Of a stretch of DNA of 64,000 bases, positions 2,613 to 17,557 are shown one piece after another. The translations under genes and the position numbers were made by a program. The first letter of the stretch is position 1. The number at the start of each line of letters is the position of its first letter. Under the pieces are notes generated by a model, which was not told the origin of the DNA, made no database searches, and saw only the letters and a program-made list of their open reading frames with translations. The stretch lies in the NCBI GenBank assembly GCA_964615585.1, contig CAZTNS010000002.1:625-64624 (forward strand), read 5' to 3'. The DNA comes from an uncultured Bacteroidales bacterium. GTDB lineage: Bacteria; Bacteroidota; Bacteroidia; Bacteroidales; ML635J-15.

Positions 2613-3531
2613 CCTGCTCCTTGTTTTGTTTTGACATCAGTTCGATAAACACATCTTCAATGCCCGGTTTAATGGCTTTGCACGTCATGTTTTCAAAACC
2701 TTGTTGCCGGCATTCCGATTCAATGTCTTTGGCTGAGACACCGGCTGAAGGTATCACATGAAGCGTTTGCCCGAACAAACTAACCGATTCCACACTGCCG
2801 GAACGCTTCAGGCATACTTTCAGATGATACATATCATCAGCCTGTATGGCATACAATTTTTTGGGGAAACGCTGTGGGATATTGCCAGGACTGTCCACCG
2901 CCATGATTTGTCCTTTTTGCATCAAAGCAACACGGTCACACCGCATGGCTTCGTCCATATACGGTGTGGATACAAAGATGGTAATACCCTGCGCTTTCAA
3001 CTTATCCAGCATGTTCCAGAACTCCACACGGGATACTGCATCCACGCCGGTGGTGGGTTCATCCAAAAAAAGGAATTCCGGCTTGTGGATCAGCGCACAT
3101 GATAAAGCCAGCTTTTGTTTCATCCCGCCGCTGAGCTTGCCTGCACGACGCTTTTTAAACGGCTCAATCTGATGGTAAATATCTTTGACCAAATCATAAT
3201 TTTCCTCTATGCTGCTCCCAAATACAGAAGCGAAAAAATTCAGATTTTCTTCAACGCTCAAATCCTGATACAATGAAAATTTCCCGGGCATATATCCAAT
3301 CATACGGCGCAGTTGTTTGTAATCATCCACCACATCCAAATCGCCAAGCGTAATGCTTCCCGCATCGGGTAACAGCAAGGTTGACATCAACCGGATCAGC
3401 GTGGATTTCCCGGCACCATCAGGGCCGATGAGCCCGAACAATTCGCCATGCTGTATCTGTAAAGACACATCCCTCACCGCCCGGATTTTCCCAAAGGACT
3501 TACTGACATTATGTATCCGGATATCTGACAT
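2599..3531 (-). CDS. ABC transporter ATP-binding protein (first NBD)
   Basis: Walker A is GPDGAGKST, the signature is LSGGMKQKLAL, and Walker B is FLFLDEPTTGVD. I place the start at MSDIRIHNVSKSFGK (ATG 3529-3531). The track's longer 3630 start would overlap the HNH gene by 100 nt with non-homologous sequence. Confidence 0.85.
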   Translation of the reverse strand: MSDIRIHNVSKSFGKIRAVRDVSLQIQHGELFGLIGPDGAGKSTLIRLMSTLLLPDAGSITLGDLDVVDDYKQLRRMIGYMPGKFSLYQDLSVEENLNFFASVFGSSIEENYDLVKDIYHQIEPFKKRRAGKLSGGMKQKLALSCALIHKPEFLFLDEPTTGVDAVSRVEFWNMLDKLKAQGITIFVSTPYMDEAMRCDRVALMQKGQIMAVDSPGNIPQRFPKKLYAIQADDMYHLKVCLKRSGSVESVSLFGQTLHVIPSAGVSAKDIESECRQQGFENMTCKAIKPGIEDVFIELMSKQNKEQDEDR

Positions 3532-3872
3532 TACAGGCGTTTTTTTCGTTTGGCAAACAGGCGTTTTTGCTTCAGGCGTTCCGATGTACGGTTTTTGTCC
3601 ACATAGTCCGGTGGTTGTTTCCGCACCCATTTGATGAATTTTTCCAGTTCCGGATGGGATTTTAACGCATCAAAATTATTGTAGGTTTGTGCCAGTTCTC
3701 GTTCTGTGAACAGGGTGTGTACTTTGTTGTGACAGATGTGGTGCATAAACACTTTTTCGTTTCCGCCCATGCTTTTTGGTACCACGTGATGTTCACTGAC
3801 GGATTTACCGCAAGTCATTTCGCGTCCACAAAGCGGACAGTTGCCGAGATATTCGCCTTTTTTGCAGTTCAT
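3531..3872 (-). CDS. small HNH-type endonuclease domain protein
   Basis: Motifs are CPLCGREM...SEHHVVPKSMGG...HHICHNKVH (Cys pair plus HH...H-x3-H) and a basic C-terminal tail. The start is placed at MNCKKGEY (ATG 3870-3872). The track's upstream extension (to 3929) runs into the repeat cassette. Its stop TAA overlaps the ATPase ATG (TAATG). Confidence 0.7.
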   Translation of the reverse strand: MNCKKGEYLGNCPLCGREMTCGKSVSEHHVVPKSMGGNEKVFMHHICHNKVHTLFTERELAQTYNNFDALKSHPELEKFIKWVRKQPPDYVDKNRTSERLKQKRLFAKRKKRL

Positions 3873-3900
3873 AACGCATCTATTGATGAAATTCCAAATT

Positions 3901-4074
3901 TCAAATGACAAATAACAAATAAATTCCAATACTCAATTTTTGAAATTCCAAACTTGTCCGGTGAAGACAGATAAGGTTTGCTACAGTTTGTTTTGGTCAT
4001 TGTGATTTGTTTGTGTTTTGTATTTTGTCATTTGGTGCTTATTTGTGTTTTGAAATTTGATCATTGTCATTTAT
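3901..4074. repeat. intergenic hairpin cassette (ACAAA-rich arm / core / TTTGT-rich heptamer arm)
   Basis: The left arm is CAAATGACAAATAACAAATAAA (about 3902-3924). The core is AAACTTGTCCGGTGAAG (about 3950-3966). The right arm, about 3987-4074, is a 7-nt phased T/G tract containing TTTGTCATTTG, complementary to the left arm. It fills the whole HlyD-HNH gap. Confidence 0.75.
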
Positions 4075-6260: not shown

Positions 6261-6899
6261 TTATGCTTTTATGGCATTAATAACAAAATCTGCCAGGTGT
6301 TCTTTCCGGTAACTTATGATATCTTGAAAATTATCCTCATCCAGGCTGTAAAACCCTTTTAACAGTGGCTTTGCAGCAAAAGGAAAAACACTTAAACTCA
6401 GTATATTCAGAAACAAATCATCCGGGTTAACATCCCTGCGAATGATTCCCATATGCTGTTCATTGTTCACATTACTGTAAAAATTTTTTCTCACCACCTG
6501 GATGCGTTCCACCGGATACAAATCAATAAGTAGTTCAGGTGCCCTTTGTATCTCATTGAGCATAAAGAGGGGCAATAATTTATTCTGCATCAGAATTTCC
6601 TGGTGTTTTTTGAAAAAACGGCGGATGCTCTCAAAAACGGTCAGGTTATCTTCAAAAATTTGAATCAAGCCTTCTATCATTTCAATTAAAACACGTTCAA
6701 ACACGGCGTTGAAAAGTTTCTCTTTTGAACGATAATAGTAATGCAACAAGGCTTTATTCAGGCCGGCTTTGTCAGCAATTTCCTGCATACGTGCCCCATC
6801 AAAACCACGTTCCATAAAAACTTCCGAAGCAGCCTTTAAAATAACGGTTTCCGTTGATTGGGGCGTATTTGATTCGTTATTATTGTTGGTTCTGATCAT
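6261..6899 (-). CDS. TetR/AcrR family transcriptional regulator
   Basis: An N-terminal HTH is present (ILKAASEVFMERGFDGARMQEIADKAGLNKALLHYYYRSKEKLF). It is the first gene of the exporter operon, as in E. coli cecR-ybhGFSR. Confidence 0.9.
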   Translation of the reverse strand: MIRTNNNNESNTPQSTETVILKAASEVFMERGFDGARMQEIADKAGLNKALLHYYYRSKEKLFNAVFERVLIEMIEGLIQIFEDNLTVFESIRRFFKKHQEILMQNKLLPLFMLNEIQRAPELLIDLYPVERIQVVRKNFYSNVNNEQHMGIIRRDVNPDDLFLNILSLSVFPFAAKPLLKGFYSLDEDNFQDIISYRKEHLADFVINAIKA

Positions 6900-6937: not shown

Positions 6938-6969
6938 GATAGGATGGCATGATAGCGAGATGGGATAAG
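6938..6969. repeat. left arm of 8-mer-phased inverted repeat flanking the four-helix-bundle ORF
   Basis: The sequence is GATAGGAT GGCATGAT AGCGAGAT GGGATAAG (8-nt period). It resembles the minus-strand reading of the 7388-7478 tract, so the two arms are inverted. Confidence 0.7.
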
Positions 6970-6983
6970 ATTAAAAGGGTTTT

Positions 6984-7358
6984 TCACAATTTCCATTGCT
7001 CCGGTTCTGTGTACATGTTGATTAACATGGCAATGATATGTTCGTATTTTTCATAGAGTGACTTATGTTCAGCCAAATCAATGTAATTACATGCCAAGGC
7101 GTAATCAAGCCAAACTTGTGTTTCTGCTGCTTCACCTTCCGCATCATTTAGTTTTGCAACAAAAGATTTCGGATAACGTCTCTTTCTCCAAGCCTCGCCA
7201 ATCATTCCAGATACGTCGCGTGAAGAGCGCCTTGCCTGATCGGTAAGTGAGTATTTTTCTTCTTTAGGAAATTTCTTGCTGAGTTCAAAAACTTCCATGC
7301 CTGCTTCAAATGAAAGCTGATAAACCTTTAAATCTTTGTGTGTTCTGATTTTTTCCAT
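6984..7358 (-). CDS. four-helix-bundle protein (23S rRNA intervening-sequence protein / Avd-like family)
   Basis: 124 aa. The N-terminus is family-typical (DLKVYQLSFEAGMEVFELSKKFPKEEKYSLTDQARRSSRDV...AEGEAAETQVWLDYA). Confidence 0.85.
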   Translation of the reverse strand: MEKIRTHKDLKVYQLSFEAGMEVFELSKKFPKEEKYSLTDQARRSSRDVSGMIGEAWRKRRYPKSFVAKLNDAEGEAAETQVWLDYALACNYIDLAEHKSLYEKYEHIIAMLINMYTEPEQWKL

Positions 7359-7387
7359 ATCTAATGTTATTTATTTGTTTATTTACT

Positions 7388-7478
7388 TCTTATTCTATCC
7401 TTACATCTTCCGTTCGTACCATCGTGCTATCGTTCCATCGTGCCATCGTGCATTCGTTCCATCGTGCTATCGTTCCAT
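7388..7478. repeat. right arm: tandem phased 8-mers
   Basis: Read on the minus strand it is GATGGAAC GATAGCAC GATGGAAC GAATGCAC GATGGCAC GATGGAAC GATAGCAC GATGGTAC GAACGGAA GATG..., a strict 8-nt period over 9 or more units. Confidence 0.85.
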
Positions 7479-7644
7479 CATCAATCCTTTTTCAGTTATT
7501 ATCCTTACGGTTTAACTTTTTTATTTAACCAGATGGGCAAATTAAATTGATTTTTTGTTAATAACAAAATTTTTTTTTGATTAAATATTGTTGTTATTTT
7601 AATGTTTTGTTAAAATATTTGATGGGATTTTACTTATTTTTGTA

Positions 7645-8001
7645 ATGATGTCTGGAACACACAACATGTTATTCGTTATTGGCTTGCTGTTTCTGCTGTT
7701 ACTCAGCACCAACACAGAAGCTCAAAAAGTTTATAGCTGCGAGTACCGCAGCGATGCGGATGTTAATGTGTTTGTGGTTGATTACCGCAGTGATGCAGAC
7801 CTTATTGTTTACAAATGTGATTACCGCAGTGATGCAAAGGACAATGAAGGATTATGGTATTTTTGTGAATACCGCAGTGATGCAGACAAAAAAATATTTT
7901 TTGTGGATTACAGAAGCGATGCAGATCTAAAAATCTTTTTTACAGAGTACAGAAGTGACGCCGGATGGCGGAATAATGAAAAAACACATTTAATGTACTA
8001 A
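7645..8001 (+). CDS. small secreted six-repeat protein ([DE]YRSDA[DKG] core)
   Basis: 118 aa. A signal peptide (...LLLSTNTEAQ) is followed by six units of beta-like hydrophobic strand plus EYRSDAD/DYRSDAD. The true start may be the internal MLFVIG Met (7666), because a TAnnTTTG box (TATTTTTG, about 7635-7642) sits right before 7645. Confidence 0.7.
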   Translation: MMSGTHNMLFVIGLLFLLLLSTNTEAQKVYSCEYRSDADVNVFVVDYRSDADLIVYKCDYRSDAKDNEGLWYFCEYRSDADKKIFFVDYRSDADLKIFFTEYRSDAGWRNNEKTHLMY

Positions 8002-8010
8002 TAAAAATTA

Positions 8011-8361
8011 ATGATTATGAAACATTTAATTGGCATTCTTGGGGTTTTATTTTTTGCTTTAATCAGTTTCAATGGCATGGCACAAAAGGTATTTGCAACA
8101 GATTCAAAGTACAATGCTGATATCAAGGTTTTTGTTACTGACAGCAAATACGATGCTGACCTGGTGGTTCACAAAGTATCTTCAAAGTACGATGCTGACG
8201 ATAATAAGGGATTGTGGTTTTTTACAGATTCAAAATATGATGCCGACAAAATCATTTGGTTTGCTGATTCCAAATATGATGCCGACCTGATCATTTATTT
8301 TACCGACAGCAAGTACAACGCTGAATGGCGGGATTCAAGCAAAAAACACTTGATGTATTAG
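8011..8361 (+). CDS. small secreted six-repeat protein (DSKY[DN]A[DE] core), paralog of the preceding gene
   Basis: 116 aa with the same architecture and spacing as 7645-8001. Both have a KVY/KVF start after the signal peptide, a central DN[EK]GLW[YF]F unit and a C-terminal W-R-x-x-x-K-x-HLMY. The repeat core is different. Confidence 0.7.
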   Translation: MIMKHLIGILGVLFFALISFNGMAQKVFATDSKYNADIKVFVTDSKYDADLVVHKVSSKYDADDNKGLWFFTDSKYDADKIIWFADSKYDADLIIYFTDSKYNAEWRDSSKKHLMY

Positions 8362-10462: not shown

Positions 10463-12526
10463 ATGAAAAATAAAAAGCTTATACTGATTTTTCTTTTTGG
10501 CTTTATCCTTAACATTGCAACACCATTTTCTGTATCTTCATCAACACAAGATACCATACATTATCTCGGTGATGAAAACTATCCCCCATTTGAGTTCATT
10601 AATGATAATGGTAAACCAGATGGTTTCAATATTGCCCTTTTCAAAAAATTAGCCGGAACGCTGAATTATCAATACACCATCAACCTGATTCCATGGTACC
10701 GGGTTGTTGATTCGCTGGAAAACGGCACAAAAAAGTATGTTACTTCCATGTTTGTTTCTGACAAGAGAAAAGAACATTATTTATTCAGCACACCACACAA
10801 TCAGGTATCGCTCGCCTTGTTTGTCCTTCATGATTCAGACATCAGCAAATTTGAAGATATCCAAGACAAAACCATACTTGTTGTCAGGCGAGATGTGATA
10901 TTTGAATTTATTCAGGATTTTCACACAACGGGAAATATTAAAAGGTATAAAAACTATATTGAAGCTTTGAATGCCCTGGAAAAAAGAGAAGGGGATGCAG
11001 TTATTTGCCCGAATATCCAGGGTCATTATATCATTCAGAATAACAATTTCTCCGGCATCACTTCTCTTGAGATTCCTTTTCCTTTGTTAGAATATTGTTT
11101 TTGCACAACCCATGATAACAAATACATAAAGACCATTATGAACGAGGGGCTGTTGATGCTTAATCAAAGTGGTGAATATGACAGAATATATAAGAAGTGG
11201 TATTCAACTTATGCTGAACCGGATTTTATTGTTTTCCTGAAAAAGTGGTTGCTACCAGCCATTTTACTATTAACCGGATTGCTTGTGCTTGTACTGACAT
11301 GGGTTTACAGTCTCAGACAACGGGTACGAAAAAAAACCCTTGATCTTCGTCTCGAGTTGCATCAACGAAAACTTGCCGAACAAAGCCTGAAACATGCAAA
11401 AGAGAAAGCAGAGGAATCTGATAAATTAAAATCAGCATTTCTGTCTAACATGAACCACGAGATCCGGACTCCGCTGAACAGCATCATGGGATTTTCTGAG
11501 CTGTTACTGGATAATACAGATAAAGATGATTTAAGAAGAGAACAACTTGAGATCATACATAAATCATCTGACCAGTTACTTAGTATTATTGAAAACATCA
11601 TCAACATATCGAAAATTGAAGCAGGACAAATAAAACTCAAAAAAACTAAAATCAGGTTGCATATACTACTGAGTGACATGAAAAAACTTTTTGAGCACAA
11701 GGCTCAAAACAAAGGATTGAATTTTCAACTGAAATTACCTGACAATGCAGATGATTTCTGGATAACAACAGATGAAAACAAGCTTAAACAAACCATTACA
11801 AACTTACTGGACAATGCATTTAAATATACAGACAAAGGGGAAATATCCTTCGGGTACAAACGTATGAATGCTTATCTTGAATTTTTTGTCAAGGATACGG
11901 GATGTGGCATTCCAAAAGATAAACACAAGCAGATATTCGAACGGTTTGTCCAGGTCAGTGATAATACAAACAAATCATATTTCGGCAGTGGGCTTGGATT
12001 ATCAATTGCAAAAGCTTATGTAGAAATGCTGGAAGGAGATATACATGTTGATTCTGAACCAGGCAAAGGGAGTATTTTTACTTTTACCATTCATCCTGAA
12101 GAAATGATGAAGATTGAAAATCCAACAGATGCAAGACAAATAAATGAGATACAAAAACTAAAAGATAAGCGAATTCTGATAGCCGAAGACATCATTGACA
12201 ATTACATTTACATCCGGGAATCATTAAAAAAATACAAGGTTGAATGTGTGCATGCATGCAACGGAGAGAAGGCTTTTAAATATGTACAACAGGAAAATTT
12301 TGATGCCGTACTGATGGATTTAAAAATGCCAGTTCTGAATGGATTTGAATCTCTGGAAAAAATCAGAAAACTCAAACCCAGGCTTCCCATTATTGCACTG
12401 ACAGCCTATGCGCAATATAGTGACAAACAACAGATATTAAACGCAGGGTTTGATGATTATCTCACTAAGCCGGTTAGCCGGGAATCCATTGTCAAGTGTT
12501 TAATAAGAATAACCATCAGAAAATAA
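10463..12526 (+). CDS. hybrid sensor histidine kinase/response regulator with periplasmic solute-binding-type sensor domain
   Basis: 687 aa. Domains are an N-terminal SBP-like domain (YPPFEF...), a TM helix, an H-box (SNMNHEIRTPLNSIMGFSELL), an ATPase domain (DTGCGIP...GSGLGLSIA) and a C-terminal receiver (ILIAEDIIDN...AVLMDLKMPVLNG...LTKP). Confidence 0.9.
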   Translation: MKNKKLILIFLFGFILNIATPFSVSSSTQDTIHYLGDENYPPFEFINDNGKPDGFNIALFKKLAGTLNYQYTINLIPWYRVVDSLENGTKKYVTSMFVSDKRKEHYLFSTPHNQVSLALFVLHDSDISKFEDIQDKTILVVRRDVIFEFIQDFHTTGNIKRYKNYIEALNALEKREGDAVICPNIQGHYIIQNNNFSGITSLEIPFPLLEYCFCTTHDNKYIKTIMNEGLLMLNQSGEYDRIYKKWYSTYAEPDFIVFLKKWLLPAILLLTGLLVLVLTWVYSLRQRVRKKTLDLRLELHQRKLAEQSLKHAKEKAEESDKLKSAFLSNMNHEIRTPLNSIMGFSELLLDNTDKDDLRREQLEIIHKSSDQLLSIIENIINISKIEAGQIKLKKTKIRLHILLSDMKKLFEHKAQNKGLNFQLKLPDNADDFWITTDENKLKQTITNLLDNAFKYTDKGEISFGYKRMNAYLEFFVKDTGCGIPKDKHKQIFERFVQVSDNTNKSYFGSGLGLSIAKAYVEMLEGDIHVDSEPGKGSIFTFTIHPEEMMKIENPTDARQINEIQKLKDKRILIAEDIIDNYIYIRESLKKYKVECVHACNGEKAFKYVQQENFDAVLMDLKMPVLNGFESLEKIRKLKPRLPIIALTAYAQYSDKQQILNAGFDDYLTKPVSRESIVKCLIRITIRK

Positions 12527-13425: not shown

Positions 13426-14841
13426 TCATTTTTCCAGTTCCCTGTGATGCAAAACAAGGTCTATGTTGTATTTTTTTGTAAGAAAAACCGCCATTTTTTC
13501 AGCCGCATATACCGACCGGTGTTGCCCGCCGGTACATCCGAACGAAACAGATAAATAATCAAAACCACGTATCAGGTAAGTATCTACCGATTGGCTGACG
13601 ATCCACTTCACATGGTCTAAAAACTCCTGCATGGCCGGGGTATCATCAAGGAATTGCCGGACAGGCTCATCTTTCCCTGTAAGCTGTTTATAATCATCAT
13701 ACCGGCCGGGATTATGTATTGCCCTGCAATCAAAAACATGCCCTCCCCCATGGCCTGATGTGTCTTTGGGTACACCATGCTTATATGAAAAGGATTGCAC
13801 ATCCAGATGAAGTTTATTATTCAGTTCTTTTGTCAAAAATGGCATGTTTTCATCAGCCAACAGCCTGTCAATAAGTTTTTCAAGCTCAGGATAATCGCTG
13901 ACAATATCAAACTCCCGCCGGATGGCATTCAGGTTATCCACGGCGTACGGTAAACTGAGTATAAAATGCCTTTTTTGCTGATGTAAACCCCGGTATCCAT
14001 AAGCACCAAGCGTTTGCAGAACACGTATCAGCACAAAAGCATGGTAATAACGCATAAAGGCTTTTTCATCAATATGGATATGTTTTGACAAATCAACCAG
14101 ATAAGATATCAGCAAATTGTTTTTTGTTTTTCCGGGAAGTCTGGCACGAGCCTGCCAAAGCAAGGATGCCACATCGTATTGTAATGCTCCCTGGCGGCCA
14201 CCCTGGTAATCAATAAACCACACCTGATTGTCATGTATCATTATGTTGCGCGACTGAAAATCCCGATACATAAAATAATTGGCAGGTGCCTGCATGAGAT
14301 AATCTGCCAAAGCGTGAAAATCCTTTTCCAGCGCATATTCGTTAAAATCAACATTCAACAGCTTTGCATAATAATATTTGAAATAATTTAAATCCCATAA
14401 AACAGCTTGTTTGTTGAATTTTCTAACCGGCCATGTGTAATCGTAATTGTAGGAAGATGCTGCGGTTGTTTGCATGTATGCCAGTTGCCGGAGTGCTTTT
14501 TTGTAATGGTCAAACGTTTCCGAATGTACGTCATTTCCACGCCTTTTATCGTTAAGATGCTGAAAAAGCGTTCTGTCACCCAGGTCCTGAAGCAGATAGG
14601 TTGTTTTATCTTCCGACACAGCATACAATTCAGGTATCCTGATGCCTTCTTTCCTGAAATGCCTGGTCATTTCAAAAAACGCCTTATTTTCCGGCACGTT
14701 GGGATTTGTTGCGGCCAGATAAGCATTTCCGTTGATTTCAAAACGAAAGTACTTTCTGTCAGAGCCGGAGCGTGGCAGTGGAATAATGTCTTCCGGTTGT
14801 TGACCGAAATGTGATGTTATGAGGTGCCAAATTTTTTTCAT
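13426..14841 (-). CDS. AmgK-like anomeric sugar kinase (APH fold) fused to a RapZ C-terminal-like domain
   Basis: The N-terminal approx 330 aa carry GSDRKYFRF and the catalytic-loop/DxD region YRDFQSRNIMIH...FIDYQGG...YDVASLL. The C-terminal approx 130 aa (FSYKHGVP...FDCRAIHNPGR...LTGKDEPVRQFL...VSFGCTGGQHRSVYAAEKMA) resemble E. coli RapZ residues after its P-loop domain. Confidence 0.75.
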   Translation of the reverse strand: MKKIWHLITSHFGQQPEDIIPLPRSGSDRKYFRFEINGNAYLAATNPNVPENKAFFEMTRHFRKEGIRIPELYAVSEDKTTYLLQDLGDRTLFQHLNDKRRGNDVHSETFDHYKKALRQLAYMQTTAASSYNYDYTWPVRKFNKQAVLWDLNYFKYYYAKLLNVDFNEYALEKDFHALADYLMQAPANYFMYRDFQSRNIMIHDNQVWFIDYQGGRQGALQYDVASLLWQARARLPGKTKNNLLISYLVDLSKHIHIDEKAFMRYYHAFVLIRVLQTLGAYGYRGLHQQKRHFILSLPYAVDNLNAIRREFDIVSDYPELEKLIDRLLADENMPFLTKELNNKLHLDVQSFSYKHGVPKDTSGHGGGHVFDCRAIHNPGRYDDYKQLTGKDEPVRQFLDDTPAMQEFLDHVKWIVSQSVDTYLIRGFDYLSVSFGCTGGQHRSVYAAEKMAVFLTKKYNIDLVLHHRELEK

Positions 14842-14998: not shown

Positions 14999-15123
14999 AG
15001 CTTGCCACGAAGTCACTAAGACACCAATACCCACAAAGAACAGAATTGCAATGTTTTATACTTTGTAGGTATTGGTGTCTTAGTGCCTTTGTGGCATTTC
15101 TCATTTTTTTTGAGTTTTTAGAC
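14979..15123. repeat. long palindromic hairpin element with 8-mer-phased arms (ACACNAAG type), copy 1
   Basis: The left arm is CCACGAAG TCACTAAG ACACCAAT ACCCACAAAG. The right arm is CTTTGTAGGTATTGGTGTCTTAGTGCCTTTGTGG, about 31/34 complementary. Outer ends are CTAAAAAG.../...TTTTTAGAC. The right half is near-identical to 55646-55700. Confidence 0.85.
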
Positions 15124-15160: not shown

Positions 15161-17557
15161 TCAAAAATTCAACCGGTACAAAAACATCGGGAAAAACCCC
15201 TGCTGGTAGTTATACACAACCTCTTTGGTTCTTTGGTCATAGGTTTGGCTGAACACATTATTGTGGTTAGTGATGTTTTGAAGGTCCAGCGCCCATTCCT
15301 GGGATACCTTTTTGCCACTCACTTTTAAACTGATGCGTCCATCAAGACGGAAATATGCAGGACCGCGTTTATTGTAAGCTTCGGCATAATCGTAAACGGT
15401 ATAATTGTTGGCTTCAGAAGCATCTTCATCAATAGCCATGAGCGGATTGCCACCGGCATAAACCGTTTTTACATTGACATCAATGAGCATGTTTTTGTTG
15501 ATGTTAAATTCGGTACCTCCGAGGGCATTGATCACAAATTGGTTGTTGAATGCCGTGTTGTGCCATTGGCCGTCAGGGTTCTTAAATTCTGATTCAAACA
15601 ATGAGGCCGTGATCAAAAAATAACAGGATTTGCTCAGAAATTTTTCAAGCGTAAATTCAATCCCATAATTACGTCCCAAACCAGCGTTTTTTAAGCTGTC
15701 AATGCGTGGAAAATTAAACCCTGCACCAAAATTTACGTTCGAAAATACCGAACGAACAGGAATATCATACAAGTATTGGTAATAAGATTCGGTTTTCAAG
15801 CGCAGGTCAGGTGTAATCATAAAATCCCACGATAAAACGCTTTGATGCGATTTCGTGAAATCAAGAGAACGGTTGCTCATCACATAGGTATCCACAGACT
15901 CAAGAGAGGATTGGGTAAAGTACGTGATGCCGGGGTGCATCATGGAATGCAATCCATATCCGGCACTTAAACGGTGTTGTGGATTGAGGTCATAGGCAAT
16001 GCTCAGGCGCGGCTCAACGGAGGTTGAAGTATTGAATTCAAGATATTGGCCATGTAAGCCGCCATACAGCGTCAGATCATCGGTAAATTTATGTTTCCAC
16101 TGCATGTATGCCTGTAGCAGGTGTAAATCTTTATTGCTGACATCGGTGTTGATGTGATACCTGTAAACCGGTTCATTGTTGAGTGTATCAATTCGGTTCA
16201 ACGCACTGTCCAGGTAGTTAACCCTGGTTTGCTGAAAATTTATCCCTGTCTCAACATAATTCCTGTGGTTGATTTTTGTGCTCAGCTTTGTCCCTGCATG
16301 CAACTTATATTCACGGTTTTGTTCTTTAAAATACAACATCTCTTTTTCAATTTCTGACTGATTGTCATCAGTGTATTTTAGGCTGTCAACGGTGGTTTGA
16401 ACCTGATAAGCCGATGCTGACACATGGGTTTTGATACGGGTGTTTTCATTGATAAAAATCAAGTGATTGGCCAAAACAGTTCCCATATCCGAACCATTTC
16501 TGGTGTTCGCCCCGGCTGTATTTCCATACGTGTTGTCATTGTCAGCATCTTGTTCAAACACAATGTGTGAGGTTCCTCCAATGCCGGTGAGGCTGAATGT
16601 TCCTGCTTTCTTTGTAGGGAAATGAAATTTAAAAGACAAGTCCTGGTATTGCGGCACAGCACCACCTGCAACATCAATGCCCAGGGCATCCATCACGCCA
16701 AGCGTGGAATACCGGTAATTTAACAGGTAAGTTGACCTGCCCTTTTTACTGAAAGGGCCTTCTGTTCCCAGTTCAAAACCGTTGAAACCTACCTGAAAGA
16801 CATGTTGCCGGGTGGTGTTGTTGCCGTGGCGCATGTTTAAATCAAAAACCCCGGATATGGCATTCCCGTATTCCGCCGGAAATGCCCCCGTGAAAAAATC
16901 GGAATTGGTCAGCAAATTGTTGTTGAGCATACTGACAGGGCCGCCGGTACTACCCATGGCGCCAAAATGGTTGGGGTTTGGAATGGGCACGCCGTCAAGA
17001 CGCCATAACAAACCTGTGGGGCTGTTACCCCGGATAATGATGTCGTTGCGCTGGTCGCCCGCTGAAATAACCCCGGCAAAATTTTGTACCATACGTGAAG
17101 GGTCGCCCAGGGCACCGGCATACCGCTCAGTTTCTTCCTTGTTGAAAGAGCGGGCACTTACGGAAGCCATTTTGTTTATTGGCTTATTCTTGTTGTAATC
17201 TGCTTTTATAACCACCTCATCAAGCTGTTCAACCATGGGCATTAATTCAAATTCCAGGTAAAGTTCATTTCCGCTTTGGATCAACACATTGCGTTTTATC
17301 GAAGCTTTGTATCCCAGAAATGAGGCACGGATGTCATACCTTCCCACCGGTAAGTCATGAAGTTTAAATTCGCCCCTGTCATCTGCCATTGTGCCCATCC
17401 CATCGTGGTCTAAAATAACAATGTTGGTGCCTGGTATGGGCTTTTGAGTTTCTGCATCCCTGACGATCCCACGCAATGATTGTGTAGAGAGAGATTCCTG
17501 TGAAAATAGCGGGACAAATATAAACACCATAAACAAAAAAGTTATTCCTGTTCTCAT
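15161..17557 (-). CDS. TonB-dependent receptor with N-terminal carboxypeptidase-regulatory-like domain
   Basis: 798 aa with a signal peptide. A CarboxypepD_reg-like segment (GIVRDAETQKPIPGTNIVILD...GRYDIRASFLGYK) is followed by plug-like and long beta-barrel sequence ending ...FLYRLNF. Confidence 0.85.
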   Translation of the reverse strand: MRTGITFLFMVFIFVPLFSQESLSTQSLRGIVRDAETQKPIPGTNIVILDHDGMGTMADDRGEFKLHDLPVGRYDIRASFLGYKASIKRNVLIQSGNELYLEFELMPMVEQLDEVVIKADYNKNKPINKMASVSARSFNKEETERYAGALGDPSRMVQNFAGVISAGDQRNDIIIRGNSPTGLLWRLDGVPIPNPNHFGAMGSTGGPVSMLNNNLLTNSDFFTGAFPAEYGNAISGVFDLNMRHGNNTTRQHVFQVGFNGFELGTEGPFSKKGRSTYLLNYRYSTLGVMDALGIDVAGGAVPQYQDLSFKFHFPTKKAGTFSLTGIGGTSHIVFEQDADNDNTYGNTAGANTRNGSDMGTVLANHLIFINENTRIKTHVSASAYQVQTTVDSLKYTDDNQSEIEKEMLYFKEQNREYKLHAGTKLSTKINHRNYVETGINFQQTRVNYLDSALNRIDTLNNEPVYRYHINTDVSNKDLHLLQAYMQWKHKFTDDLTLYGGLHGQYLEFNTSTSVEPRLSIAYDLNPQHRLSAGYGLHSMMHPGITYFTQSSLESVDTYVMSNRSLDFTKSHQSVLSWDFMITPDLRLKTESYYQYLYDIPVRSVFSNVNFGAGFNFPRIDSLKNAGLGRNYGIEFTLEKFLSKSCYFLITASLFESEFKNPDGQWHNTAFNNQFVINALGGTEFNINKNMLIDVNVKTVYAGGNPLMAIDEDASEANNYTVYDYAEAYNKRGPAYFRLDGRISLKVSGKKVSQEWALDLQNITNHNNVFSQTYDQRTKEVVYNYQQGFFPMFLYRLNF

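Follow-up and report, generated by a model that had tools for sequence, protein, structure and literature searches.

A 64,000-nucleotide stretch of contig CAZTNS010000002.1 from an uncultured Bacteroidales bacterium, referred to below as the window, carries a 124-aa open reading frame (ORF) of the S23p family, or 23S-IVS protein family, between two inverted arrays of phased 8-mers. This cassette lies upstream of a TetR-family regulator gene. The same package of gene and arms is spread over more than ten bacterial phyla; the two arms vary together, the cassettes run in the direction of the neighboring host genes, alleles with and without the insert occur at the same positions, and the ORF is under strong purifying selection. 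We give an even chance to the interpretation that the element is a promoter-less cassette of the type known from 23S rRNA intervening sequences (IVSs), the arms of which would pair in the host transcript, loop the cassette out, and probably form a site for RNase III.

The cassette upstream of the TetR operon

The features of the locus are listed with their window coordinates; related loci elsewhere are denoted by L numbers.

6261-6899, minus strand: gene for a TetR-family regulator, the first host gene downstream of the cassette (Pfam)
6938-6969, minus strand: 3' arm, CTTATCCCATCTCGCTATCATGCCATCCTATC, made up of about four units that complement the 5' arm; 25% purine on the coding strand (inverted-repeat pairs)
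6970-6983, minus strand: short spacer from the stop codon to the 3' arm (read from the sequence)
6984-7358, minus strand: S23p-family gene, 124 aa (PF05635 and TIGR02436 matches)
7359-7407, minus strand: A-rich leader, running from the 5' arm to the ATG and containing the motif AATAAGAAGTAAATAAA..ATTAGAT
7408-7479, minus strand: 5' arm, 69% purine on the coding strand and built of nine phased 8-mers (Tandem Repeats Finder, TRF, and pattern search)
7480-7494, minus strand: outer junction segment TGAAAAAGGATTGAT, confined to cassette-bearing alleles (aligned in the window and L001, not in L092)
7523-7569, minus strand: host leader upstream of and outside the cassette, invariant in all five orthologous loci

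A first reading of the letters alone (the sequence-only reading) had listed nine 8-mers for the right arm, and positions 7408-7479 read exactly so on the minus strand: GATGGAAC GATAGCAC GATGGAAC GAATGCAC GATGGCAC GATGGAAC GATAGCAC GATGGTAC GAACGGAA, with the unit form GATRGNAC. TRF reported a period of 8 with 8.2 copies and 75% matches as well as a 24-nt super-period at 88%. The 16-mer GATRGNACGATRGNAC, with up to two mismatches allowed, matched seven times in this arm against 0.77 matches expected in the whole window, and the tract is thus far from chance. The total of eight matches in the window was reached by 0 of 100 shuffles, and a period-8 scan of all 64 kb detected this tract alone.

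The sequence quoted for the left arm at 6938-6969 was also correct; on the plus strand, it is better divided as GATAG/GATGGCAT/GATAGCGA/GATGGGAT, which is the GATRG unit family of the 5' arm. The proposed mutual inversion of the arms therefore stands, as one phased unit family occurs on opposite strands, and the 3' arm is 81% complementary over 21 nt to two registers of the 5' arm. A stem between the arms was present in the minimum-free-energy fold of either strand, although it is weak in the window copy. The arm duplex of the sense strand amounted to -30.1 kcal/mol, a value matched by 4 of 500 shuffles of the 3' arm. The window copy is old and partly decayed, with a shortened 3' arm; otherwise, it is an ordinary member of the family. 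Its leader motif AATAAGAAGTAAATAAA..ATTAGAT was also found upstream of the ATG in L001, L005, and L006, including a non-orthologous cassette.

Assignment of the ORF to the four-helix-bundle family first described in 23S IVSs was borne out by profile searches. The protein matched PF05635 with an E value of 1.5e-28 and 99.6 bits (cut-off 33.8) and TIGR02436, "four helix bundle protein," with 85.5 bits (cut-off 24), exceeding both curated cut-offs. The homologous Avd proteins of diversity-generating retroelements (DGRs) were considered and ruled out as its identity, the scores being 22.5 bits against 80 for NF033474 and 19.1 against 40 for PF22296. The nearest solved relatives were 2RLD (E 2.8e-6) and 2GSC (E 8.2e-6), with five chains in each entry; 2GSC has been described as a homopentameric toroid (PMC4990558). 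Comparison of the window ORF with homologues at synonymous distances (dS) of 0.7-2.3 gave ratios of nonsynonymous to synonymous substitution (dN/dS) of 0.05-0.09. Thus, the ORF is under strong purifying selection, and it is deduced that the protein is in use. Profile searches of the 124-aa protein yielded no transposase, integrase, nuclease, or other catalytic domain, and it matched none of the PADLOC defence models. No relatives were found in viral contigs, and a phage vector is therefore not supported. The 64-kb window contained neither S23p paralogues nor further phased tracts.

The cassette is situated between two divergently transcribed DUF6150 genes and the TetR gene. Its ORF shares the strand of the TetR operon, in which OEP, HlyD, and ABC genes (Pfam) follow the regulator gene, confirming the proposed site upstream of a TetR gene heading an exporter operon. 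In the host leader, a conserved TTTAATTTGCCCATCTGGTTAAAT/TTTAnnTTTGCCCA block and a 13-nt palindrome, TTGTTATTAACAA, are retained with or without the cassette. The TTTAATTTGCCCATCTGGTTAAAT block is probably the promoter -7 box and the palindrome the TetR operator. At this block, the exact Bacteroidetes-type TAnnTTTG was seen in L095 alone, and a strict search revealed no exact motif in the window. Scanning for sigma-70 promoters and terminators, an approach unsuited to Bacteroidota, gave background levels. We infer that the 5' leader of the TetR operon holds the cassette and that both are transcribed together. As had been stated, it lies outside rRNA: no rRNA gene was present in the window, and it is not an insertion in helix 25 or 45 like a 23S IVS. 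Apart from one tRNA elsewhere, Rfam gave no meaningful match in the region or the window.

Arms and alleles across the family

A protein search with the window ORF gave at least 7998 matches at E <= 0.001 among 8000 scored candidates, and the best 120 were all at least 72% identical. Scanning one genome per species yielded 79 loci with proteins 54-89% identical, from Bacteroidota, Verrucomicrobiota, Planctomycetota, Acidobacteriota, Cyanobacteria, Nitrospirota, Desulfobacterota, Kiritimatiellae, Anaerolineae, and Ignavibacteriales. Arms were surveyed in 77 non-redundant loci (proteins 54-97% identical) by scanning 160 nt on each side of the ORF. In 60 of them, the best period was equal on both sides: 8 in 44 loci, 7 in 15, and 9 in one, period 7 being found in a Chloracidobacterium/Pyrinomonadaceae group. 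Hairpin-type arms around other family members, anticipated from the window copy, thus occur in these loci and in finished cyanobacterial plasmids.

The layout was almost always a purine-rich array followed by the ORF and a complementary pyrimidine-rich array, with mean purine fractions of 0.71 upstream and 0.37 downstream. The unit sequence varied by lineage (GATGGAAC, GAGCGAnn, GAGACAAT, GGGGAGAA, GGAGCAGG, GACACGGG, and the 7-mer GAGACAG), and the two arms of a locus varied together. In 22 of the 44 period-8 loci, the upstream unit matched the reverse-complemented downstream unit at 7 or more of the 8 positions, as compared with 5.5% of non-cognate arm pairs. Mean duplex energies, calculated for sampled arm pairs, were -79.5 kcal/mol for cognate, -61.7 for non-cognate, and -58.6 for shuffled arms. 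In 46 loci, the arms were 85% complementary over a mean of 33 nt.

A copy at 85% identity has surroundings quite unlike those of the window copy; it lies between a ferredoxin-domain gene and a glutamate-synthase-domain gene, with GATAGCAC/GAAAGAAC 8-mers upstream and (AATCGTGC)x8 downstream. The arm layout was also present in finished plasmids of Nostoc edaphicum, Nostoc punctiforme PCC 73102, Nostoc sp. C052, and Geminocystis, the protein identity of the latter two copies being 30-31%. The PCC 73102 gene is NPUN_RS36250 on pNPUN02, and the C052 copy is on pC052_D. Because these plasmids come from cultured cyanobacteria, the layout is not an assembly artefact. When the longest ORF adjoining each side of a cassette was taken as its neighbor, the two neighbors shared the strand of the cassette in 53 loci and were both opposite to it in 6 (binomial p = 2e-10). 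The arrays typically spanned from the stop codon of the upstream gene to the ribosome-binding site or start of the next one.

Filled and empty alleles were found at two loci. At the TetR locus, the closest TetR orthologue (89% identity, L092) was separated from DUF6150 by a gap of 193 bp with no ORF and no 5' array, in which about 25 nt resembling the 3' arm were left. The orthologues in L093 (80% identity) and in L095 and L096 (71%) had, at the corresponding position, 190-340 nt of phased 8-mers rich in purines and no ORF; L095 and L096 ended with ETEQWKL-stop, matching the last seven codons of the window ORF. From this pattern and the ORF remnant, it is deduced that the cassette at the TetR locus is old and has been independently decayed or deleted by lineage. 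The comparison of TetR-upstream regions in relatives thus answered the question of presence or absence raised by the sequence-only reading: L092 is cassette-less, and L093 and L095 are decayed. The arrays of L093 (2555-2895, about 340 nt) and L095 (2640-2790, about 150 nt) consist of blocks of different unit types with higher-order duplications and occupy the TetR leader without an ORF or a complementary array. Between the window and L001, the proteins are 97% identical (4 of 124 residues differ), and the arms differ by +24 nt and -8 nt: the 5' arm of L001 is the window array with three extra units, and the 3' arm differs by exactly one 8-nt unit.

The second locus is on Nostoc plasmids, where a TraM-recognition-domain gene and the next gene are separated by a spacer with flanks 94-95% identical. 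This spacer, 52 nt long, is empty in p057_K of Nostoc C057. It holds (GGGAACA)x4, the ORF, and (TGTTCCC)x6 in Nostoc C052 and N. edaphicum; in pNPUN01 of N. punctiforme, it holds an ORF-less element composed of (GGCAGGA)n, about 150 nt, and a complementary array. The C052 insert is closed as a whole by a 30-bp stem (z = -7.0), and the ORF-less pNPUN01 element folds with z = -3.4; Rfam returned nothing for the latter. No target-site duplication was seen in either comparison, window versus L092 or filled versus empty Nostoc alleles. In the filled Nostoc alleles, about 36 nt of native spacer are replaced, not interrupted.

The 9.5-kb L157 locus (contig Ga0209417_1000140) contains three repeat elements, including an ORF-less hairpin between two genes, and its second S23p gene is a distant paralogue (30% identity) flanked by direct arrays of the GAACAAAA type. 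In L016 (2835-4530), a tandem duplication precedes an intact UDP-sugar-dehydrogenase-like gene; the duplicated unit comprises about 90 nt of the 5' end of that gene plus the cassette, and the gene fragment in the first copy has diverged, a hint that recombination through conserved host sequence may have spread it. Three tandem copies are present in L066, where each is accompanied by a duplicated 3' end of a host gene. In L043 (1-1080), the cassette lies between the N-terminal (...RYFTVYGP) and C-terminal parts of an NAD-dependent epimerase gene, with about 75-90 residues missing, as estimated from typical epimerases. Either the cassette was inserted and a deletion took place, or the metagenome assembly is chimeric and was joined via the repeated cassette. 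Many contigs with close homologues were just 0.5-2 kb long, and several of those inspected (L006-L012) began or ended inside the arms, which probably break short-read assemblies.

Proposed looping out of transcripts and competing explanations

According to the IVS-type interpretation, an S23p four-helix-bundle gene flanked by two inverted arrays of phased short repeats, 8-mers or 7-mers, would reside in transcribed host regions: leaders, spacers between co-directional genes, and, classically, 23S rRNA. Because the cassette is co-oriented with the host genes, its expression would probably occur by host read-through. The purine-rich 5' array would pair in the transcript with the pyrimidine-rich 3' array, in several registers because the repeats are tandem. 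The stem would loop the cassette out, rejoin the flanking host sequences, and restore the geometry of the host RNA, and RNase III would probably cut it, as it does in rRNA IVSs. With host expression little disturbed, the cassette could persist. The arms change fast by gain and loss of whole units and evolve in concert, and the protein may have a role in folding or binding its own arms.

The closest known relatives are the 23S rRNA IVSs of Coxiella burnetii, Leptospira, Xanthomonas, and Brucella (PMC4990558). There, as here, an S23p-family gene lies in the loop in sense to the host transcript, inverted repeats bound the element, and it has no promoter of its own. The C. burnetii IVS contains tandem GACAGAT heptamers just 5' of the ATG of its S23p ORF, with strains having either two or three full copies, and its 28-bp terminal stem is cut internally by RNase III (PMC4990558). 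Its 5' arm of variable-copy heptamers matches the 7- and 8-mer arms described here. Because the arm design is shared, the analogy to IVS elements, drawn initially from the window sequence, is architectural and goes beyond protein homology. In the window copy, a sense-oriented S23p ORF preceded by short tandem repeats was found, and the stem expected of a 23S IVS is present in both folds but at -30 kcal/mol and a z-score of about 0. The elements differ in that the window copy resides in the leader of the TetR efflux operon and most of its relatives between protein-coding genes, in that RNase III excision has been shown for rRNA copies only, and in that the Coxiella ORF is reported as decaying (PMC4990558), whereas the window ORF is under strong purifying selection.

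A number of observations weigh against a looped-out transcript. The long stem with the ORF in its loop, foreseen by the sequence-only reading, appeared in the folds of both strands but is weak: with z-scores of 0.11 and -0.75, the whole-region fold of the window copy was no better than those of shuffled sequences, and 148 of 1304 natural decoy segments (11%) paired equally well with the window 5' arm. No G-U bias was found when the mismatches in the arms of 46 loci were searched for it; of the transitions, 53 were sense-compatible and 58 antisense-compatible, and transversions numbered 111. Duplex energies of the sense and antisense strands did not differ. The L100 copy, after cas2 in Pseudanabaena, has no arms, and L016, L046, and L063 show the variant order array, ORF, array, complementary array. 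In L157, ORF1 has a full hairpin on each side, and ORF2 has direct A-rich arrays on both sides. Moreover, when metagenomes were scanned for three consecutive GATRGNAC units and 80 loci among the matches listed (L103-L182) were examined, 79 were without an S23p gene and 64 without a complementary partner array. Thus, arrays exist independently of the ORF and of pairing. Specificity of the arms for S23p cargo was accordingly rejected. Among the 64 partnerless loci, some look like chance coding matches and some like very long mixed arrays. Tight hairpins had the purine-rich array first in 15 of these 80 loci and the opposite order in one. Several arrays in L108, L132, L133, and L167 exceeded 200 nt, with the unit type switching in blocks. 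The dispersed class of hairpin cassettes envisaged by the sequence-only reading gained support insofar as ORF-less hairpins of the same repeats exist; in the window itself, there is one such tract.

The element might instead act at the level of DNA, the arrays being terminal repeats made of multiple binding sites, the S23p pentamer an end-binding protein, and the ORF-less hairpins non-autonomous derivatives, like the small inverted-repeat transposons known as MITEs, mobilized in trans. Presence/absence alleles at two unrelated loci would fit such an element, as would the Nostoc spacer that was taken independently by ORF-bearing and ORF-less elements with different units, the ORF-less hairpins and S23p cassettes that share a unit family within 9.5 kb of L157, the close homologues in many phyla and on conjugative plasmids, and the lack of RNA-specific bias in the arm mismatches. 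DNA-level recognition is also suggested by IS110 and IS481 elements situated at fixed distances from similar paired arrays in Geobacter (PMC2700814). We nevertheless judge a mobile DNA element to be unlikely. Neither filled/empty comparison showed a target-site duplication, and about 36 nt were replaced in Nostoc; the 124-aa protein lacks a transposase, integrase, or nuclease domain, although it may depend on a transposase in trans. Many loci are orthologous across species, which speaks for long vertical residence. The strong co-orientation with host genes would be unexpected for a DNA transposon, and viral contigs yielded no relatives.

The repeats could also be a regulatory platform, that is, iterated RNA or DNA binding sites of a ring-shaped protein that tunes the downstream genes. 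This protein might be the S23p pentamer, comparable to TRAP on spaced GAG repeats, or, as has been proposed for Geobacter, a nucleoid protein; the array complementary to it would serve as an anti-site. The units do keep a skeleton with GA at a fixed phase (GAnnGnAC, GAGACnnn, GGGGAnnn) while other positions vary, and the arrays stand directly 5' of start codons and in operon leaders. The five chains per entry of 2RLD and 2GSC and the homopentameric toroid reported for 2GSC (PMC4990558) are consistent with a ring, and binding of a global regulator was proposed by the Geobacter authors for paired octa- and heptanucleotide arrays (PMC2700814). On the other hand, units differ strongly between lineages with 55-60% identical proteins, which would require repeated co-evolution, and arrays often have just 3-4 units. 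For the same reason, the notion that the arrays reflect a pentamer bound to five or more units is unsupported. The TetR leaders of L093 and L095, with purine-rich arrays but neither an ORF nor a partner, appear to favor a platform; however, L095 keeps the last seven ORF codons, and its array therefore represents what is left of a cassette, not a site dedicated to regulation. Overall, a regulatory platform seems quite improbable.

Finally, functionless arms, namely hypermutable micro- or minisatellites from slippage in which S23p genes land or survive, with an inverted symmetry due to tract generation or gene conversion and not to selection, would account for the rapid gain and loss of whole units, the very long mixed ORF-less arrays (100-416 nt), the majority of arrays without an ORF or a partner among the matches listed, and the missing G-U bias, but they rank last and are likewise quite improbable because matching arrays flank the ORF in 60 of 77 loci and the sole tract of the 64-kb window is at the ORF, arm co-variation is kept across long vertically inherited loci, the purine-rich arm comes first by rule in cassettes and by 15 to 1 in the listed ORF-less hairpins, the arms adjoin host stop and start codons exactly, and in rRNA copies the rRNA helix can form only if the arms pair (PMC4990558). 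That the purine-rich arm prefers the first position and that unpaired arrays exist are explained by none of the four models considered, the IVS-type cassette included.

Neighboring loci, known systems, and significance

A Pfam scan of the larger ORFs between 572 and 19141 identified ABC, HlyD, OEP, TetR, DUF6150, TonB-dependent receptor, and other domains. The statement that no reverse transcriptase is nearby holds for 15 of the larger ORFs (at least 110 aa) scanned in this interval, from which the 687-aa ORF at 10463-12526 was left out; template and variable repeats of a DGR were not part of the window search. The two tandem DUF6150 paralogues adjoining the cassette (7645-8361, plus strand) have internal peptide repeats, YRSDAD and SKYDAD, and hold their position in all orthologous loci, whether the cassette is present or not. 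A small ORF at 3531-3871 (minus strand), placed between the HlyD and ABC-ATPase genes of the exporter operon, has an HNH-like motif, MNCKKGEYLGNCPLCG...HHVVPKSMGG...HHICHNKVH, and a faint match to PF14279. It is preceded by an inverted repeat (3895-3936/4018-4059) with an A/C-rich and a G/T-rich arm. The fold of this spacer (3872-4074), the other hairpin checked in the window, was not significant (z = -0.94). At 15003-15096, between the genes listed as ORFs 13426-14841 and 15161-17557, a hairpin of 43 nt with 86% complementarity and a loop of 8 nt is followed by a T-run and is a candidate terminator.

The ORF-less hairpins resemble the paired octa- and heptanucleotide arrays reported in 2009 for Geobacter metallireducens, which were termed "predicted global regulator binding sites" of classes 1-3 (PMC2700814). 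They are described there as three to five tandem units of 7-9 nt in opposite-strand pairs at variable distance, mostly between co-directional genes, with several unit families per genome. With nine units on one strand and about four on the other between the DUF6150 and TetR genes, the window copy falls within this definition. In contrast to the cassettes, the Geobacter arrays were described in one genome, have no cargo genes, and were interpreted as IHF/HU-type binding sites. The searched parts of PMC2700814 and its supplements contain no link to S23p or four-helix-bundle genes or to rRNA IVSs.

DGR Avd proteins belong to a homologous four-helix-bundle fold family, as reflected in the weak matches of the window protein to PF22296 and NF033474, the scores of which are far under the Avd cut-offs. 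Avd genes are not known to have phased inverted arrays at their flanks. The Correia elements of Neisseria (Neisseria miniature insertion sequences, NEMIS) and MITEs are likewise short inverted-repeat elements between co-transcribed genes, and the transcript hairpin of Correia elements is a substrate of RNase III. They differ from the cassette in having unique-sequence terminal repeats, target-site duplications, and no conserved protein gene; the cassette has tandem 7/8-mer arms, no duplication that was found, and a conserved ORF as its usual cargo. The TAACTGA heptamers of Beggiatoaceae are direct repeats, which the paper describing them does not link to the S23p family (PMC4679880). Genes of PF05635 have been reported in cas loci and linked to CRISPR arrays (PMC3936711, PMC10910872). 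Promiscuous insertion of cassettes, possibly with arms misread as CRISPR-like arrays, could explain these reports.

A full-text literature search found no description of the package of ORF and phased arms outside rRNA. Gene copies outside rRNA are already widely annotated, and the Coxiella heptamers and Geobacter paired arrays are known. What is apparently new is the S23p gene between co-varying phased inverted arrays, co-directional in operons, in many phyla, and with filled and empty alleles.

TIGR02436/PF05635 proteins are very common small bacterial proteins of unknown function. The family has been a puzzle since its discovery inside 23S rRNA intervening sequences in the 1990s. The package, its co-orientation, the filled and empty alleles, and the arm design shared with rRNA together provide a concrete model for this family, testable in culturable strains such as N. 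punctiforme. They also bear on the Geobacter paired hepta- and octanucleotide arrays, on the reports of PF05635 near cas genes and CRISPR, and on metagenome assembly, as many contigs with homologues are short and several that were inspected stop within arms. A wider reading, doubtful when taken with all of its parts, would be that S23p genes and phased 7/8-nt arrays constitute widespread, unrecognized self-insulating elements in transcribed spacers, that the S23p pentamer is their own nucleic-acid-binding factor, similar to a maturase or an end-binding protein, that the ORF-less hairpins and arrays, which are far more numerous, are non-autonomous derivatives, and that the 23S IVS is the special case noticed first. 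If this were true, such elements would colonize operon junctions, 5' leaders, and rRNA helices in at least ten bacterial phyla.

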